A stretch of 64,000 nucleotides of DNA from Candidatus Gastranaerophilales bacterium. GTDB taxonomy: Bacteria; Cyanobacteriota; Vampirovibrionia; Gastranaerophilales; Gastranaerophilaceae. The notes beneath the pieces were generated by a model. It had not been told where the DNA came from. It ran no database searches and saw nothing but the letters and a program-made list of their open reading frames with translations. The translations under genes and the position numbers were made by a program. The first letter of the stretch is position 1, and every line of letters begins with the position of its first letter. Below, in pieces: positions 6,349 to 17,732 of this stretch. The stretch covers positions 73,604 to 137,603 of the forward strand of contig CALVEI010000001.1 in NCBI GenBank assembly GCA_944326515.1, read 5' to 3'.

Positions 6349-6456
6349 TAGTGGTTTGTGTTTTATAATAAATAAGGTTTTGTTCTCTGTGTAAGTGTAT
6401 TTTAAGAGATTTTTTTGTGAACATGCCTATATCATGTAAGAAGGTTAATATACAAA

Positions 6457-6546
6457 ATCGTCATTCTGAGCGAAGCGAAGAATCGCATTGACTTTTGATT
6501 ATTTGTGGGCTGGTGGGATGTTTCGCCAAAGGCTCAACATGACGAT
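6457..6546. repeat. REP/MITE-like imperfect palindromic GC-rich element
   Basis: Arms ATCGTCATTCTGAGCGAAGCGAAGAATC and GATGTTTCGCCAAAGGCTCAACATGACGAT (reverse complement ATCGTCATGTTGAGCC...) around a roughly 32-nt spacer. It shares GCGAAG-type submotifs with the other repeats. Confidence 0.6.
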
Positions 6547-6641: not shown

Positions 6642-6872
6642 TTAATTTCTATTTTGTTCTTCTTCAAAGTCATGTAATAACTGTGCGGGGGTTTTGTTAT
6701 AGCCTGTTGCTATTTTTTCAAGCACAGAAATTTTTATTTCCAAAAGATTATTTTCAACGCGACTAAGCGTTGAGGGTTCAATTCCATTTTTGTATGCAAA
6801 GGAGTTAAGTTTATAACCCTTTGCTTCTCTTATTTTTTTTAAATATTTAGATAATTTTTGATTGTATTGCAT
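6642..6872 (-). CDS. XRE-family helix-turn-helix transcriptional regulator
   Basis: 76 aa. LKKIREAKGYKLNSFAYKNGIEPSTLSRVENN is the classic HTH_3 pattern. It lies 30 nt downstream of infC. Confidence 0.8.
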   Translation of the reverse strand: MQYNQKLSKYLKKIREAKGYKLNSFAYKNGIEPSTLSRVENNLLEIKISVLEKIATGYNKTPAQLLHDFEEEQNRN

Positions 6873-6902
6873 ATCTGCAACTCTTTAACTTTTGGAAAAA
6901 TC

Positions 6903-7439
6903 CTAGTTAGCAGGTGCAAGGATGATGATAAGGTTTCTGCCTTCCATAGAAGGTTTTTTCTCAACGTTGATAGGTTCACCTTCTAAATCTGCAATAAATC
7001 TGTTTGCAAGGTCAAAAGCAAGTTCTGTGTGTTGCATTTCACGACCTCTTAACATGATAACGATTTTAACTTTGTCACCTGATGCAATAAATTTTTTGAT
7101 GTTTTTGATTCTTACGTTGTAATCATGAACATCTATTTTATATCTGATTTTGATTTCTTTAATTTCTACGGTATGTTGTTTTTTCTTGGCTTCTTTAGCC
7201 TTTTTTTCCATCTCGTATTTGTACTTTCCGTAGTTCATAATTTTCGCTACGGGTGGGTTTTGGTTTGGAGATACAACTACCAAATCCAGGTCTTTTTCAT
7301 CGGCCATTCTTTGGGCTTCTATTGTAGGGATAACTCCGAAGTTCTCACCTTCACTGCCTATCAATCTTACTTCTTTACATCTTATGTTTCTGTTAATTAA
7401 AGCTGCGTCCTTGTTGCCGCTTGAAAAATCTCTGCTAAT
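6903..7439 (-). CDS. infC: Translation initiation factor IF-3 with an ATT start codon
   Basis: IF-3 N and C domains (EVRLIGSEGENFGVIPT..., KEIKIRYKIDVHDYNVRIKNI...). The frame is open 25 codons upstream of the first ATG, back to an ATT preceded by GGAGAACAAACC. Confidence 0.85.
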   Translation of the reverse strand: MSRDFSSGNKDAALINRNIRCKEVRLIGSEGENFGVIPTIEAQRMADEKDLDLVVVSPNQNPPVAKIMNYGKYKYEMEKKAKEAKKKQHTVEIKEIKIRYKIDVHDYNVRIKNIKKFIASGDKVKIVIMLRGREMQHTELAFDLANRFIADLEGEPINVEKKPSMEGRNLIIILAPAN

Positions 7440-9118: not shown

Positions 9119-10423
9119 TTATAATTTAGGTATTGTTATTTCAAAAGTAGTACCGTTTTCATCAGAGCTTATGAGTTTTAAATCTCCGTATTGCTCTTGC
9201 ATTGCTTCTTTTGAAATATACAGTCCGAGTCCGCTGCCTGTAATTTTTGATGTGTAACCTTCTTCAAAAACTTTTGAACATTTGTCTTTTTCTATACCAC
9301 AGCCGTTATCAGTGATTAAAATTTTGAGCATATTGTCTGCTGTTTCTTCGGTTTTTATTTTTATTGTTCCGTTCTCTTTTACCGCGTCTATTGCGTTATA
9401 GAAAAGATTTATCATTACGTTTAACAGTTTGTTTTCATCGGCTAAGATATTGCCGTTGTATTGGTTTGAAACTTCAAATTTTACGCCTGTTTGTTGTGCT
9501 TTTGCGTTTACAAGGTTTATGGCATTTTGCAATATTTGCGCAAAATTAAGTGTTTCAAGTTTGACACTTTGGATTGTTCTAAGCTCTGTTAAAAGAACCT
9601 CGATAGCATCTTTGGATTTTTTTATACTTGAAATTGCGTTAGTTATTGAGTCATGGAGTTCTGCATTTGGAACAATTTCAAGTCTTTTTTCCATTATTTT
9701 GGAATACAAATCGATGATAGAAAGGTGGTTTTTTATATCGTGAGAGATTACTTTTGCTTTTGTTGATATGTATTCATATTTTTTGATAATATCATCGCTT
9801 TCCCCTAACAAGCCTACTTCTGCTTGGGTCATGGAGGCTTCTTCGACAAAAGAATCTGCAAAGTTGATGAACTTGTGAACAGCTTGGTTTAAAAGTTCAT
9901 TGCTTCTTCTTTCAGGGGTGTATTCTTGAATGTATCTTGTTAAATCAATTTTAGAGTTTTCAGAGATTATTTGAATAACGTTGTTTACATCTCTTGAGTT
10001 TAAAAGGTAGTACAAACAAGATGTTTCTTTGATTGTTTCTGTAGAATAATCCCATAACATGCAGGCAGAATATCTTGGAGAAAGTAATACAAGAAATTCT
10101 GTTTGTCCCCAGATGTCATCTTTTGTGAGATTTTCGCCTTTTGTAACATCGTCAAAGGAGTAAACTTCTGCGTTTGTGAATTCTAGTCTTTTTAAAACTC
10201 CGTCAAGTTCTTTTGTATCAAAGAGTCTAATTAAAACAACTGCTTTTTGAGTTTGGGCTTCTAAAAGAGGTTCTAATGCAAAGCGAAACAAACCCTTGAT
10301 GGTTTGTTTGTTGACAGGTTTTGTCTGTCCTAAATATATCAAATCTTTTAAAAGATTTTTTTGTCTAAAGTTTGCTCCGCTCATTTTTCTCTCTTGAATT
10401 TCCTTTGCGCTCAGACCTGTCAT
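9119..10423 (-). CDS. Cytoplasmic sensor histidine kinase with an uncharacterised N-terminal sensor domain. The true start may be the second Met at 10384.
   Basis: H-box SHDIKNHLSII, N-box LINLFYNAIDA, G-boxes DNGCGI and GSGLGL. No TM segments. The first 13 codons overlap repeat-like sequence. Confidence 0.85.
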   Translation of the reverse strand: MTGLSAKEIQERKMSGANFRQKNLLKDLIYLGQTKPVNKQTIKGLFRFALEPLLEAQTQKAVVLIRLFDTKELDGVLKRLEFTNAEVYSFDDVTKGENLTKDDIWGQTEFLVLLSPRYSACMLWDYSTETIKETSCLYYLLNSRDVNNVIQIISENSKIDLTRYIQEYTPERRSNELLNQAVHKFINFADSFVEEASMTQAEVGLLGESDDIIKKYEYISTKAKVISHDIKNHLSIIDLYSKIMEKRLEIVPNAELHDSITNAISSIKKSKDAIEVLLTELRTIQSVKLETLNFAQILQNAINLVNAKAQQTGVKFEVSNQYNGNILADENKLLNVMINLFYNAIDAVKENGTIKIKTEETADNMLKILITDNGCGIEKDKCSKVFEEGYTSKITGSGLGLYISKEAMQEQYGDLKLISSDENGTTFEITIPKL

Positions 10424-10820
10424 TCACTTCGCTGTCGCTTCTGTTCATTTCGGTCTTCGCTTTCCGGATTTTATCCGTTCGGAAATTCGCTTACCATTAT
10501 TTAATCTGCTGGCGTTACGCCCGCTTGTAGTTTTTTCTTCGGACAAGTCGTTCATTCACTGTTGTCCTCATTACTTCGGCGTTCCTTCGCTTTGCTCAGT
10601 CAGCCTACACAAATCTGCTTCTTAGATTACCGGCGTTCGGAGAAAGCGTGGTTTCTCCTCACATGGGGCGTTTCGTTTCACTTCAGCCCCGCACGGAATC
10701 CGCTTCTTGGATTATTGTTCCATTCGGACAACTCGTTCATTACGCTTTCGCTGTCATTCACTATTGTCCTCATTACTTCGGCGTTCCTTCGCTTTGCTCA
10801 GTCAGCCTACACAAAATCCG
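10424..10820 (-). repeat. Mosaic of GC-rich repeat units filling the RR-HK intergenic region
   Basis: Direct repeats at 10538-10615 and 10723-10818 are near-identical, and the second carries a 17-nt internal insertion. Several short hairpins are present (GGAGAAA/TTTCTCC, TTTCCG/CGGAAA, GGGGC/GCCCC). The minus strand is purine-rich and shares GAGCAAAGCGA-type motifs with the 14339 element. Confidence 0.75.
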
Positions 10821-11531
10821 CTATATAGCGATTTTGACTTTTCTTCTGTTCAAAAATCCGTTGTTCAATGCGTACAACACAGCTTGTGTTCTATCATTAA
10901 CCTGCAATTTTTGGAAGATATTGTTTACGTGTGTTTTTACTGTTGTTTCTGAAATAAACAGTTTTTGTGCCACACCTTTGTAGGTTATGCCTTGTGTTAA
11001 CAAATCAAGAACTTCTTCTTCTCTTTGTGTAAGGTAGTTAAGAAGATTTTCTTCATCTGCTGTATTTTCTGCTTCTTCTTTGAAAGATTTTTGGAAATAT
11101 TCGAAAAATCTTGAGGACAAAGTTGCAGGTAAGTAAATTTTGCCTGCTGCAACTTCGTCTATTGCGTAGATGAGTTGAGCAGAGGCCATTGTTTTTAAGA
11201 TATAGCCTTTTGCACCAATCTTCATAGCTCTGAAAATTAAGTCAGGATCATCATAGCCTGTCAAAGCGATAATACGCACTCCCAAATCCAGTTTTTCAAT
11301 CTCTGCTATCGCAGTTAGACCGTCTTTTTCAGGCATGTTGATATCCATTAACACGATTTCGGGACGATACTTCTTAATAAGACTGATTGCAACACTTGCG
11401 CTTGTTGCTGTTGCCACAACATCGAAATCGCTCTCAATTTCAATCAATTCCTTGATACCTGACAAATGATCGTAATTGTCATCTACTAGAATGATTCTGG
11501 CTTTCTTCTTAAATTCAAGACCTCTTCTCAT
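10821..11531 (-). CDS. NarL/LuxR-family response regulator (REC + HTH)
   Basis: REC domain (ILVDDN...VLMDINMPEKDG...K at the usual position) and C-terminal LTQREEEVLDLLTQGITYKGVAQKLFISETTVKTHV. Confidence 0.9.
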   Translation of the reverse strand: MRRGLEFKKKARIILVDDNYDHLSGIKELIEIESDFDVVATATSASVAISLIKKYRPEIVLMDINMPEKDGLTAIAEIEKLDLGVRIIALTGYDDPDLIFRAMKIGAKGYILKTMASAQLIYAIDEVAAGKIYLPATLSSRFFEYFQKSFKEEAENTADEENLLNYLTQREEEVLDLLTQGITYKGVAQKLFISETTVKTHVNNIFQKLQVNDRTQAVLYALNNGFLNRRKVKIAI

Positions 11532-11817
11532 CTACTCCCCCCAAGATTTTATTTTTAAATTGTTATTAATCGTGTGATTGTATTATTTACACATGGTATA
11601 TTACCTCTAAATGTAGTAGGCTCTCATCGGCTATGGGGTCGAAATAGCTACAAAAACGCATCTTCTTAATGATTTAGACCACTTGGTCTATGGATGGGGC
11701 TTTTTGCTTACAGTGAAAAGGATTTCAGGATTATTTAAAAATAATTTATTAGTATTACTTTTCAAAGTTGAAGTAATAGATTTAAATTAGTCATAATGTA
11801 TGATAAATTATTGTCTA

Positions 11818-12169
11818 GGAGCAGTCGGATAATCGCGCAGATGAAAAACTCTGTGAGGAAAGTCCGGGCACCCAAGGGCAGACCGCCTGATAACGTCAGG
11901 TGCGGGCGACCGTGAGGATAGTGCCACAGAAATGCAGACTGCCGATGATTCCTGACTTTGTCAGTGAAAACAGGCGATGGTGCAACGGCGAGGTAAGAGC
12001 TCACCGGCAAGGCTGAGAGGTCTTGGCCAGGTAAACCCCGGTCGGGTGCAAGGTCAACTAAAAGGTTAAGGTGACCCGCCGTCTTTTGACAGACCGCTTG
12101 AGCTTGCAGGCAACTGTAAGTCGAGACAGATGATTATCTAAAAACAGAACCCGGCTTATGAGCTGCTCC
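11818..12169 (+). ncRNA. rnpB: RNase P RNA, bacterial type A
   Basis: Conserved GAGGAAAGTCCGGGC (P4 5' strand) and ACAGAACCCGGCTTA (P4 3' strand). P1 pairs GGAGCAG with CTGCTCC. The region is GC-rich relative to its flanks. Confidence 0.9.
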
Positions 12170-12269
12170 TTTTTATTTTTGTAAAAGCGGTTTCGCTTGT
12201 AGAAGTGGTTTGGACTTGTTTATTGCACAAATCCATCAGGTGTTTCGAGTTAGTTGACAATATGAAATA

Positions 12270-14150: not shown

Positions 14151-14338
14151 TTTAAATCCTTATATTTTTGACAGTATATATAATACTTGGAAATTTTAGT
14201 ATATGCAACAAATTTAACTATTTGGGAATTGTTACCTATTGTAAAAATGGAATATTTGACGTAGCAAAAAATATTTTGTTTGAACTTAATTTTGTAGGAC
14301 AATAAAATCATGGTCTTATAAATTGTCCGAAAAAAATT

Positions 14339-14443
14339 CGTGATAAGGAGCAAAGCGACGTGAACGAATTTTTTGAGTGTCACCTTGAAAAGGTGAGCAG
14401 TGGCGGCTCGAAGGTTCGAAGCGACAACTGCGACACTAGATTA
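14339..14443 (+). repeat. GC/purine-rich leader repeat element ending in CGACACTAGATT (copy A)
   Basis: GATAAGGA..GTGAACGAATTTTTTGA..AAGGTGAGC..CTGCGACACTAGATT. It ends 28 nt before the ATG at 14472. Confidence 0.65.
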
Positions 14444-14471: not shown

Positions 14472-15986
14472 ATGGATATTAAATCAATCAGTACGCTAAC
14501 TTTGCCTCAAGCAGGTGTATATTCTGCTGCACCAAAACCTCAAAACACTACGCCTGTGGGTCAGCCGATGCAAGAAAGTACAAACCACAAGACTAACAAA
14601 AATTTTAAAAAGAAACTCCCTTATATTGCAGGTGCAATAGTTTTGGCTGGTTTAGGCATATATTTTACAAGAGGCAAGTCTTCTAAAAATGTTATTAATA
14701 ACGAAAACCTTGATAAATTAGGCGAAAACGTTGTTGCTAAACTCCAAAAAGAAGAAGAAAGACTTTTGGAAGCTGTAATACCAGAAAAGCCTAATAAATT
14801 AGGTGAAAAGGTAGTTGATCAAATTAAAAAAGAAGATACACTTTCTGAAGCATTAACACCAGGAAAAATTGAAGTACCTAAACAAAAAAATAAAACCAGT
14901 TTAAAAGATTTGATGAAAATTGATAAAAATGATCCTGATATAGAAGACGCTGTTGAAGTTATTGAAGATGAAATCAGTGAAAATTTGCCATCATTACCTG
15001 AAAATATTTGTATAGGTTTTGAAAATAATCAACCTGTTTTTGAAAAATATGCGCATGTTGTTGAAGAGGAAGTTCAACCTGCAATCAGCGCATTTGATGA
15101 AGCTAAAAAATCGATAAATTTTTTAAATGACGAAATTATCGCAAAAATAGTTGAAAACAAGAAAAAAGACGCGCAAGAGGTAAATCGTATTATCTCGGAA
15201 AATACAAAAGACGGTCACATAAACTTTAATATTATGCGTAAAGTTGCTCATGATTTTTCTACAGACGAAGCAAATAGAGGTGCCGACAGATTTCATCAAG
15301 CTGCTGACGTTTTAGAACAATCTTATTTAAAAGAGTTTATTAAAACTGAAAATGGTGAAACAAAAGGTATTTATAATCTTTTTGATGCTATGAAAACAGA
15401 TACCGAGTTGTTTTCAATTTATACTCAAAGGCCTATGGAAGAAGCTGCTAACAGGTTGAATTATCTTCGTCATAACGAGCTTATAAACTGCAAAGCTCCT
15501 AAAGATATGACACCTGATGAATTTTTTGAAAAAAGTTTTGAAAAACTTGTAGAAAAATTTCAGTTCAAAAAATATAATGACAAATTTAAAGTTGATGGCA
15601 ATTTTATCGATGTTATGCAAAAAAACCAAAATTTAAGAAAAGAAACAAATGCAATTTTGGATTCTGTAACAGGTGAATATGGTACGGTTGACCTTGTTAA
15701 ACTTAAATCAATAATAGCAAATGAATCAGATGCTCATAAAGCCGCTAATTTGATGGAAAAAGCTCTGCTCAAAAACTATAGCGGAATTTCTTCTGTTGAA
15801 GAGTTTCAAGATGCTTTTGTTTCTAACAAGACGCTTTTTGATATCTACAAAAAAATGCCTAAAGAACAAGCTACTCAAAGAATTAACGCATTCAGACGTT
15901 TTGAAATAACACCACTTTTCAAAGACGCTGATGAGTCAAAAACTTTGGCATTCTTTAACGAAGCTGTTAAAAAGTTAGACGCTTAA
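14472..15986 (+). CDS. Hypothetical membrane-anchored protein with two internally repeated C-terminal modules
   Basis: 504 aa with one TM segment (LPYIAGAIVLAGLGIYF). The repeated modules are ...TELFSIYTQRPMEEAANRLNYLRHNELI and ...KTLFDIYKKMPKEQATQRINAFRRFEIT. Confidence 0.6.
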   Translation: MDIKSISTLTLPQAGVYSAAPKPQNTTPVGQPMQESTNHKTNKNFKKKLPYIAGAIVLAGLGIYFTRGKSSKNVINNENLDKLGENVVAKLQKEEERLLEAVIPEKPNKLGEKVVDQIKKEDTLSEALTPGKIEVPKQKNKTSLKDLMKIDKNDPDIEDAVEVIEDEISENLPSLPENICIGFENNQPVFEKYAHVVEEEVQPAISAFDEAKKSINFLNDEIIAKIVENKKKDAQEVNRIISENTKDGHINFNIMRKVAHDFSTDEANRGADRFHQAADVLEQSYLKEFIKTENGETKGIYNLFDAMKTDTELFSIYTQRPMEEAANRLNYLRHNELINCKAPKDMTPDEFFEKSFEKLVEKFQFKKYNDKFKVDGNFIDVMQKNQNLRKETNAILDSVTGEYGTVDLVKLKSIIANESDAHKAANLMEKALLKNYSGISSVEEFQDAFVSNKTLFDIYKKMPKEQATQRINAFRRFEITPLFKDADESKTLAFFNEAVKKLDA

Positions 15987-16592: not shown

Positions 16593-17732
16593 ATGTATTA
16601 TGGTGTATATATGGAAAATTTTACGTTATTAAAAGAAGATTCTTTTGAAGATAGCTTGAGCGAAATTCTTCAATTGAACCAAAGGAATGAAAAACATACA
16701 ATTCTGATTGTAGACGACGAGGTGAATAACCTTCAGTTGCTGCGCAGAACACTCAGACACGATTATAATATACTCACTGCTTCAAACGGAAAGGAAGCTC
16801 TTGAGATCGTTGAGGGTAAAGGTGATGAGATTGCTCTTATCGTAAGCGACCAAAAAATGCCCGAAATGGAAGGTACAGAGTTTTTAAAACGTGTTGCGGG
16901 TGAGTATCCTGATATTGTTAAAATTCTTTTAACAGGGCATCTCGATGTAGATGCGATTGTTGATTCTATTAACGATTGCCATTTGTATCAATACATTGTT
17001 AAACCTTTTGACCCTGAAGAACTTAAGATGACAATAGATTCAGGTATCAAAAAATTTGATTTGGTTAATAACAAAACTGTTATTTTAAAAGATTTAAGAG
17101 AATTATTTTATAAAACTATAAAACTTATCGCATCTGCACTGGATGCTAAAGACCCTTATACACACGGTCATTCTTTGAGAGTTACTATGTATTCTTTGAT
17201 TTTGGCAAAGAGTCTTAATCTTGATGATACAACTCTTGAAGAAATCGAAACAGCAGGATTGTTGCACGATATAGGAAAAATCGGTATTCCTCAAAAGATT
17301 CTTTGCAAGCCTGACAAGCTTACCGATGAAGAATATGAGTTGATGAAATCACATCCTGCACGTGCAGAAAAAATGTTGATGGGTATTAAAAAACTTACGG
17401 TAGTATCTAACTGGTTGAGATGTCACCACGAAAGATGGGACGGCAAAGGCTATCCTTATGGGTTAAAAGGTGAAGAAATTCCTATATCAGGTCGTATAAT
17501 TGCGTTGGCTGATACTTACGATGCAATGACTTCAACACGTTCTTATCGTAAAGCTTTAGACCATGAGGTTGCTATAGAAGAAATTAAAAGATGTGCAGGC
17601 ACTCAGTTTGACCCTGTATTGGCAGATTTGTTTGTTAAATGTTCTGACGAAATCAAAGCAGCCAAAGAAGATCCTGAAACTTATTATCCTAAGTACAGTT
17701 ATCTTCAAAAACAAATTTACGAGACAAGATAG
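16593..17732 (+). CDS. Response regulator with an HD-GYP output domain (RpfG-like c-di-GMP phosphodiesterase). The start may be Met7.
   Basis: REC (ILIVDDE...VSDQKMPEMEG...K) followed by canonical HGHSLRV, LLHDIGK and HHERWDGKGYP motifs. Confidence 0.9.
   Translation: MYYGVYMENFTLLKEDSFEDSLSEILQLNQRNEKHTILIVDDEVNNLQLLRRTLRHDYNILTASNGKEALEIVEGKGDEIALIVSDQKMPEMEGTEFLKRVAGEYPDIVKILLTGHLDVDAIVDSINDCHLYQYIVKPFDPEELKMTIDSGIKKFDLVNNKTVILKDLRELFYKTIKLIASALDAKDPYTHGHSLRVTMYSLILAKSLNLDDTTLEEIETAGLLHDIGKIGIPQKILCKPDKLTDEEYELMKSHPARAEKMLMGIKKLTVVSNWLRCHHERWDGKGYPYGLKGEEIPISGRIIALADTYDAMTSTRSYRKALDHEVAIEEIKRCAGTQFDPVLADLFVKCSDEIKAAKEDPETYYPKYSYLQKQIYETR

Follow-up and report, generated by a model that had tools for sequence, protein, structure and literature searches.

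The spacer between a response regulator (RR) gene and its histidine kinase (HK) gene was analysed in a 64,000-nucleotide (nt) stretch of the Candidatus Gastranaerophilales contig CALVEI010000001.1, referred to here as the window. This spacer is probably a head-to-tail array of four copies (A', B, a truncated A, and C) of a small, non-coding, self-folding miniature mobile repeat, and comparison with orthologous loci suggests that the units were added to an older spacer of 76-106 nt in which an intercistronic hairpin and a conserved leader of the HK were already present. The number of units differs between strains that encode an identical RR protein, related units occur at unrelated loci, the two arms of every unit pair with each other, and a constant repeat of the unit's own 5' end flanks the insertions. 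The parts of the locus are listed below from RR to HK, with window coordinates and the basis of each call.

10821..11531, minus strand: response regulator gene, Response_reg plus GerE/LuxR-type helix-turn-helix (open reading frame (ORF) list; Pfam of the identical protein)
10823-10821, minus strand: RR stop codon, TAG
10703..10820, minus strand: unit A', 118 nt, CGGATTTTGTGTAGGC...AATAATCCAAGAAG, first base directly after the RR stop (model R1, E 0.0067)
10737..10753, minus strand: 17-nt mini-hairpin CAGCGAAAGCGTAATGA, nested in the P3 loop of A' (GC-GAAA-GC hairpin in the fold; missing from the second A copy)
10618..10702, minus strand: unit B, 85 nt, three-way junction (fold; model R1, 102 bits)
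10537..10617, minus strand: second copy of unit A, 81 nt, without 3' arm and tail, joining the older spacer sequence directly
10536-10525, minus strand: A-rich linker
10508..10524, minus strand: older intercistronic hairpin GCGGGCGTAACGCCAGC (orthologous spacers)
10490..10507, minus strand: conserved HK leader AGATTAAATAATGGTAAG (seven orthologous spacers read)
10389..10489, minus strand: unit C, 101 nt, closing stem GAATTTCC/GGAAATTC, tail AAGAGAG (fold, z = -3.77)
9119..10384, minus strand: histidine kinase gene, 421 amino acids (aa), HATPase_c, start ATG at 10384

Strain and species variation at the RR-HK locus

Ten contigs from different samples, retrieved by the exact RR protein sequence and designated here, like the other loci compared, by L numbers, have RR-HK gaps of 196, 281, 384, 397-399 and 483 nt. 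Layout A is found in L004 and L009, layout B-A in L001, L007 and L011, layout A'-B-A in the window, L002, L003, L005 and L008, and layout B-A'-B-A in L006, with the same downstream sequence after the array in every layout. Unit A (10537..10617) is the sole A/B-type unit in L004 and L009, the A unit of L004 has the appearance of a hybrid between A' and A, and unit A' is missing in L001, L004, L007, L009 and L011. L003 also lacks the interior of unit C, the place of which is taken by a short hairpin. The identical-RR strains carry 2 to 5 units per spacer (1-4 A/B-type units upstream of C), and the unit array explains RR-HK gap differences of up to 287 nt between otherwise near-identical strains.

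Orthologous RR-HK pairs of other species, located via the HK protein, provide the comparison with pairs lacking the insert that the preliminary description of this DNA had called for. Spacers of 76 nt (L025), 81 nt (L021), 106 nt (L028) and 116 nt (L035) contain no full unit, and these short spacers consist of a hairpin right after the RR stop, an AAATAA(T/A)GGTAAG leader, and a brief A-rich segment that leads up to the ATG. Across the seven orthologous spacers read, the leader consensus is AAATAA(T/A)GGTA(A/T)G; at the position of 10508..10524, the hairpin GCGGGCnnnnGCCCGC is present in L017, L019 and L021, and L025 and L028 carry a different hairpin there. The premise that RR and HK genes are normally adjacent fails at this locus, where they never are: spacers of 76-116 nt with a conserved hairpin persist even without full units. 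Traces of units are found in other species. L021 (81 nt) has a mini-hairpin, GGAATC-AAAA-GATTCC, at the position of unit C, L028 (106 nt) retains a degenerate remnant of a unit downstream of the RR stop, and one species is polymorphic, with a 168-nt spacer in L017 (hairpin, leader and C-type unit) and a 306-nt spacer in L019, the extra sequence of which is one 138-nt B-type unit inserted after GGTAAG. Because other species hold such traces and one is polymorphic (168/306 nt), the RR-HK spacer is a site that units have colonised repeatedly. In a separate observation, the closest other species (L034, HK 88% identical) has no RR gene upstream of the HK gene, and its 320-nt HK upstream region (9680-10001) contains a mini-unit reduced to the closing stem P1, AATCCAAGATAGCGGATTTTGTAATCCAAGAAA, plus other hairpins.

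In composition, the spacer differs from the surrounding DNA, with a GC content of 0.477 (10401-10800) compared to about 0.33-0.35 in the flanks, the window overall being AT-rich at about 34% GC. The plus strand has a GC skew of -0.20 and an AT skew of -0.44, so that the transcribed minus strand is purine-rich. Two adjoining direct repeat pairs, one of 62 nt with 98% identity (10552-10613 and 10754-10815) and one of 19 nt with 95% identity (10538-10556 and 10723-10741), are split by an extra 17-nt segment (10737-10753) in one copy only (10723-10815); a 54-nt repeat core occurs twice in the window, compared to zero expected from shuffles, and the minus-strand RNA of the spacer region (447 nt) folds with z = -3.06 relative to shuffles. 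Tandem Repeats Finder (score >=30) reported no array in the spacer, and a promoter and terminator scan of the spacer gave nothing above shuffled expectation, with no promoter predicted inside and a sole, weak terminator-like site at the RR-stop edge (10831-10818). The starting observation of a GC-rich repeat mosaic between an RR and its HK is thereby confirmed, together with the two long direct repeats and the purine-rich transcribed strand that were part of it. What had been described as a 17-nt internal duplication is rather an inserted 17-nt mini-hairpin (CAGCGAAAGCGTAATGA) bounded by an imperfect 7-8-nt repeat. The claim that two submotifs are shared with leader repeats holds in part: GTGAATGAC is found only within the spacer region (2 seen, 0.42 expected, not significant), while further copies of GAGCAAAGCGA lie at 14348-14358 and (with one mismatch) 6468-6478, both sites falling in other small GC-rich segments (14318-14440, and 6455-6540, the latter only read by eye in the sequence).

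The length of the spacer depends on the kinase start. A 434-aa form of the HK exists only where the ATG at 10423, a spurious start codon inside unit C, is present; about 110 of the 120 listed HK orthologues have 421-424 aa, and in strain L003, which lacks the segment bearing this ATG, the HK is called at 421 aa. In all species, MSGANFRQK or MGGANFRQK comes after the leader. By these orthologue lengths and strain L003, the true HK start is the ATG at 10384, as previously proposed, and the annotation is corrected to this position. Because of this start, the spacer measures 436 nt (10385-10820) and not the 397 nt initially given.

The order RR-HK-flgB-flgC-fliE is kept across orthologous loci, and the constant presence of flgB-flgC-fliE after the pair suggests a flagellar regulatory role for it. 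HATPase_c is the only Pfam match of the HK, the N-terminal ~200 aa being without a family. Upstream of the RR gene and divergent from it lies a class A bacterial RNase P RNA (11817-12174, plus strand, 243 bits), which confines the RR promoter region to the 285 nt between the two.

Unit anatomy and copies at other loci

Each unit extends from 5' CGGATT to AATCC-AAGAAG 3' and has a size of about 80-140 nt. The 5' arm (CGGATTyyG...) and the 3' arm (...CrrTAATCC), followed by the AAGAAG tail, close the stem P1 around variable hairpins, and the arms, of 10-12 nt, pair in every unit as terminal inverted repeats (GGATTyyGyG with CrCCrrTAATCC). Unit B of the window comprises a closing stem P1 (GGATT/AATCT, then CCG/CGG), a hairpin P2, a GUGA...GAAC internal loop, and a hairpin P3. 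The B-type units of the window, L014, L016, L019, L032 and L033 have the same minimum-energy three-way-junction fold, involving P1 (GGATT/AATCC, a bulged U, and three more pairs), P2, a GU-GA...GA-AC internal loop with tandem G-A, and P3. A-type units follow the plan of the B-type. C-type units, unit C of the window included, form a single long hairpin interrupted at regular intervals by tandem G-A internal loops, and the tail of unit C places AAGAGAG 5-11 nt ahead of the HK ATG.

In 12/12 units, the fold of the sense strand is no less stable than that of the antisense strand. In the alignment to model R1, which was itself fitted to the model, 94.3% of cells are paired, compared to 75.9% in shuffled alignments and at most 51% with slid partners; in the same model-fitted alignment 14 of the 21 pairs are changed on both sides, P1 showing the series C-G, U-G and U-A at the same positions. 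The hairpins P2 and P3 are exchangeable between units. For example, the L019 unit combines P2 of L014 unit 1 with P3 of L014 unit 3, and unit B of the window shares an identical 26-nt P2 with unit 3 of L014, which belongs to another species.

Every unit is bordered by (A)GCGGATT(T...), a sequence that is also the 5' end of the unit itself; this flanking repeat is 14 nt long at pyrK and 8 nt long at the RR-HK sites. Adjacent units meet at the junction AATCC-AAGAAGC-GGATT. The arrays of the window, L014, L019 and L006 all run head-to-tail on one strand, and all units lie on the operon strand, in agreement with the orientation originally noted for the repeats.

Copies elsewhere were sought by scanning species-representative genomes with a 20-nt repeat core, which recovered the same RR-HK locus in a Candidatus Gastranaerophilales metagenome-assembled genome (MAG; CALVEH010000004.1) and another locus in a second Gastranaerophilales MAG (L014). 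The latter is the efp-accB spacer (6783-7110), which contains three units on the gene strand, starting right after the stop (TATAG followed directly by CGGATT), unit 2 being C-type. A metagenome scan with the junction pattern identified one locus, an 84-nt unit located in frame and without stops in pyrK (L016). In the same species, pyrK is found as a 273-aa form with a 28-aa insert and as a 245-aa form without it, the two being 98% identical in the aligned part. The empty allele (L031) reads ...GTGTAGCGGATTTTGTGGAAGG..., with a single AGCGGATTTTGTGG, and the filled allele is exactly 84 nt longer, with this 14-nt direct repeat on both sides of the insert. Related in-frame inserts are present at the same Ala-Asp-Phe site in pyrK of other species, and the pyrK products of L032 and L033 (277-289 aa) contain one full unit followed by a partial or decayed one. 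In some species, pyrK also has another, unrelated hot spot for insertions behind the LAPLGN motif, where 40-70 low-complexity residues are added (P0150, 313 aa; P0151, 326 aa).

An A-like unit is located upstream of a gene in L013 (JAZSQZ010000111.1, 4.5 kb), a contig of a MAG labelled Clostridia, which could be a binning error or could mean that the family reaches beyond Gastranaerophilales, and a weak C-like unit is located in L017 (17342-17467) between a 471-aa gene and rpmI. At all five loci, the units are on the strand of the flanking genes. The family total is five loci in about 394 kb of partly redundant related DNA, with one locus in the 64-kb window; searches of the window and the ~394 kb of related DNA with a junction profile (nhmmer), regular expressions, and a covariance model gave no further loci, the junction pattern had 0 matches in viral contigs, and phage and plasmid collections showed no similarity to the units. 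The earlier suggestion that the region belongs to a repeat family is thus borne out by related units at other loci, and nearly all copies known from the sequences sampled to date come from Candidatus Gastranaerophilales.

Origin and possible effects of the units

In the proposed mechanism, a unit would integrate at a sequence resembling its 5' arm, GCGGATT(T). Each inserted unit would supply a further site of this kind, so that subsequent copies would land beside earlier ones and generate head-to-tail arrays. The near-identical A and A' copies would further permit unequal recombination with gain and loss of units, which would explain the hybrid A unit of L004. The constant flanking repeat could arise through site-specific recombination on a short core, through base pairing between 3' arm and target, or through microhomology-driven copying. 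Closure of P1 would bring the flanks of the insert together, which would explain why units are tolerated in an mRNA leader, in an intercistronic position, and in a loop of a protein. At the RR-HK locus, the units are most likely passive passengers of the RR-HK(-flgB-flgC-fliE) transcript, and any effect on the RR:HK ratio is probably an incidental by-product; possible by-products include a barrier to 3' exonucleases that would protect the RR segment, and an altered HK initiation due to the AAGAGAG tail.

A more far-reaching version, which is put forward tentatively, is that the units represent a new kind of miniature element that finds its target by sequence or structure at GCGGATT(T...), a mimic of its own 5' arm, possibly with the target recognised by base pairing to the 3' arm in single-stranded DNA or RNA. 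Such an element would combine self-targeting arrays, hairpin exchange and in-frame tolerance, and would use a host or element enzyme, with no classical transposase or target-site duplication.

Several points weigh against the interpretation as a self-folding mobile repeat. The covariation counts were made on an alignment fitted to model R1, and the complementarity within P2 and P3 could stem from a palindromic origin and not from selection on structure. The family looks low-copy in the sampled DNA. The flanking repeat is constant in sequence, which is not the behaviour of an ordinary target-site duplication and fits site-specific recombination and microhomology copying equally, and the pyrK polymorphism may reflect either insertion or precise excision between the 14-nt repeats. 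Finally, Pfam analysis of the window ORFs, which are housekeeping and flagellar genes, detected no transposase, recombinase, reverse transcriptase, RAYT, integrase or Cas in the window.

Of the alternatives, a selected cis-regulatory RNA that tunes RR:HK, whether by 3' exonuclease protection, processing, partial termination, or protein binding at tandem G-A/GGA motifs, would account for the placement of the units on the transcribed strand at all five loci, the sense-strand folding preference in 12/12 units, the conservation of structure with covariation, the retention of a hairpin at the spacer position even in species without units, and the position of AAGAGAG in the C tail 5-11 nt upstream of the HK ATG. 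A required regulatory function is nevertheless disfavoured, because identical-RR strains carry anything from 2 to 5 units and other species have none, or only a degenerate remnant or mini-hairpin. The units also reside at functionally unrelated places, including the inside of a coding sequence, and the spacer contains no predicted promoter, its lone terminator-like site being weak and at the RR-stop edge. Across the whole window, no Rfam 15 family reached its gathering score, and hits of E up to 10 on the spacer and on the L014 and L019 arrays were at chance level only. Regulation as the reason for the array is thus considered unlikely. A lower probability still is assigned to a purely local variable number tandem repeat (VNTR), in which a 202-nt A'-B segment is duplicated or deleted by slippage or unequal crossing-over and no transposition takes place. 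The 62-nt, 98% identical A/A' repeat is well suited to unequal recombination, the A unit of L004 resembles the A'/A hybrid expected of a deletion product, and the layouts differ by whole units. However, no tandem array is reported by Tandem Repeats Finder, one A/A' exchange is not enough to convert A'-B-A into the B-A'-B-A layout, unrelated loci of other species hold units with the same arms (in one case also with an identical P2 of 26 nt), and the pyrK allele pair shows the clean presence or absence of a single unit at a site with no other unit.

The notion of a decayed gene remnant or a small-protein gene between RR and HK draws on antisense (plus-strand) ORFs of 81-111 aa that run through the spacer, one of which is called as a gene in L006. 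It is scarcely credible given that a search of 5.8 billion proteins returned no homologue of the antisense ORF, that the longest sense (minus-strand) ORF in the spacer has 36 aa, that the strain indels of 85, 118, 138 and 202 nt (the 85- and 202-nt indels not being multiples of three) together break every frame, and that the sequence resolves fully into repeat units plus conserved leader. Neither a coding frame on the minus strand nor a gene remnant, the outcomes that the preliminary description had regarded as damaging to its repeat interpretation, was therefore found. The L006 gene (6580-7101, minus strand, 173 aa), called antisense through the array in one public assembly, is a spurious ORF, made possible because the pyrimidine-rich antisense strand lacks stop codons.

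Relation to known small repeats and other inserts

The preliminary description had compared the spacer to a BIME-like cluster of REP units. REP, BIME and REPIN elements, which are mobilised by RAYT in proteobacteria, are short GC-rich hairpin repeats that lie within operons, are co-transcribed and strain-variable, and can stabilise mRNA. The units resemble them in being GC-rich, hairpin-forming and strain-variable and in lying between operon genes, and their two inverted arms close a hairpin as in a REPIN. The comparison cannot be sustained beyond this, however: the units are arranged head-to-tail and not in alternation, their arms are not self-palindromic, their interior is variable and branched, and they have a constant GCGGATT(T) flank. 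GTAG occurs only in A-type units (GTGTAGGC) and not in B or C, so that a conserved REP palindrome with a GTAG head is lacking, the copy number in the sampled DNA is low, and the window contains no RAYT gene.

Rickettsia palindromic elements are palindromic inserts of about 100 nt that are found between genes and also in frame inside protein genes without destroying them. The in-frame and tolerated 84-nt pyrK insert shares this behaviour, which does not imply membership of the Rickettsia families: the units are found in another phylum, have a defined flanking repeat and tandem arrays, and are likened by behaviour and not by sequence. Miniature inverted-repeat transposable elements (MITEs), such as Correia of Neisseria and Nezha of cyanobacteria, have target-site duplications that are fixed in length and varied in sequence, carry the same ends as a parent insertion sequence (IS), and are often co-transcribed with neighbouring genes. 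The units are likewise small and non-coding, with terminal inverted repeats and presence/absence among strains, but their flanking repeat is always their own 5' end (8-14 nt) and not a duplication that varies between sites, and no parent IS with the unit termini, and no phage or plasmid similarity, was found for the loci examined.

Pneumococcal BOX elements are intergenic and consist of boxA, a variable number of boxB, and boxC, the module number differing between strains. The units resemble BOX elements as modular intergenic repeats with a strain-variable number of modules and differ in module architecture, this comparison being one of description and not of sequence; BOX elements are not known to occur in frame within genes or to be flanked by a constant repeat. 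Cyanobacterial small dispersed repeats (SDRs) are mobile, 21-27 nt long and highly iterated, and those of Nostoc and other cyanobacteria are said, in work attributed to Elhai et al. 2008, to insert into hairpins that are already in place and to leave these intact. By analogy, an SDR-like nested growth is suggested by the 17-nt mini-hairpin within A', by the exchangeability of P2 and P3, and by the P1-only mini-units of L021 and L034, although the units differ from SDRs in being 80-140 nt long, low-copy, and arrayed. Integron attC sites are imperfect palindromes of 57-141 nt, which the units resemble in single-strand folding, bulged bases, a variable centre of the structure, strain-variable head-to-tail arrays, and a short constant core. 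They differ in that the unit core is not GTTRRRY, that no integrase is nearby and no cassette ORFs are present, and that the units are scattered over loci inside operons and genes.

Other class assignments were tried and rejected. An integron attC/cassette array was discarded for the lack of a GTTRRRY core at the junction and of an integrase in the window, and a CRISPR array (with a 37-nt 'repeat' at the junction and a 48-nt 'spacer') for the finding that the 'spacers' are conserved, structured and common to different species, with no cas in the window. In a hammerhead reading of unit B (CUGAAG...GAAAC), core order and stem II position misfit by eye, and Rfam gave no match; a simple VNTR does not describe units that differ in type and length and of which Tandem Repeats Finder reports nothing. 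In behaviour, the array comes closest to REP/BIME/REPIN elements, MITEs, Rickettsia palindromic elements, BOX elements and SDRs. The units are classed as a variant among small non-autonomous repeat elements and assigned to no named family, because those defining features that were assessed fail: alternating REP palindromes, a variable target-site duplication, a GTTRRRY core and unique spacers are all lacking. Literature searches on Melainabacteria repeats and on small dispersed repeats turned up no description of the unit family.

Further inserts of other kinds were observed in the same genomes. In the window, an unrelated GC-rich insert of about 123 nt (14318-14440) occupies the 5' leader of a 504-aa gene (14472-15986, plus strand) and contains GAGCAAAGCGA. 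L001, L002 and L010 share this insert with the window, L005 and L006 cleanly lack it, and an element of this type is also found at another locus in another species (L017, ~16860-17075). An inverted-repeat element at 6455-6540 of the window reads GTCATTCTGAGCGAAGCGAAGAATC...GATGTTTCGCC...CTCAACATGAC, and similar GTCATTCTGAAGCA...CCTCAGGATGAC elements occur in L017 and L025. Extra GC-rich, hairpin-rich DNA also accounts for a 727-nt difference between the gltX-rpoB intervals of L025 (14418-15632) and L026 (14418-14905), and for a difference of ~195 nt, as counted, between the fliE-infC intervals of L021 (12849-13337) and L022 (12849-13167). Judging from these comparisons, several small-insert families seem to be active in these genomes.

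Gastranaerophilales are a non-photosynthetic sister lineage of cyanobacteria that live in animal guts and are uncultured and little studied. A family of self-folding inserts is here documented in this lineage. Its unusual signature comprises a constant flanking repeat that matches the 5' end of the unit, arrays running head to tail, internal hairpins that can be exchanged, and an in-frame insert in pyrK. Neither the family nor this insertion signature seems to have been described before, the sequence itself being ordinary selfish or neutral DNA. Sequence-guided insertion, if confirmed, would widen the range of mechanisms by which miniature DNA is known to propagate. The arrays are usable as strain markers for metagenomic tracking, and the natural series of 2-5 units provides a handle on the relation between intercistronic structure and the expression of a two-component pair.

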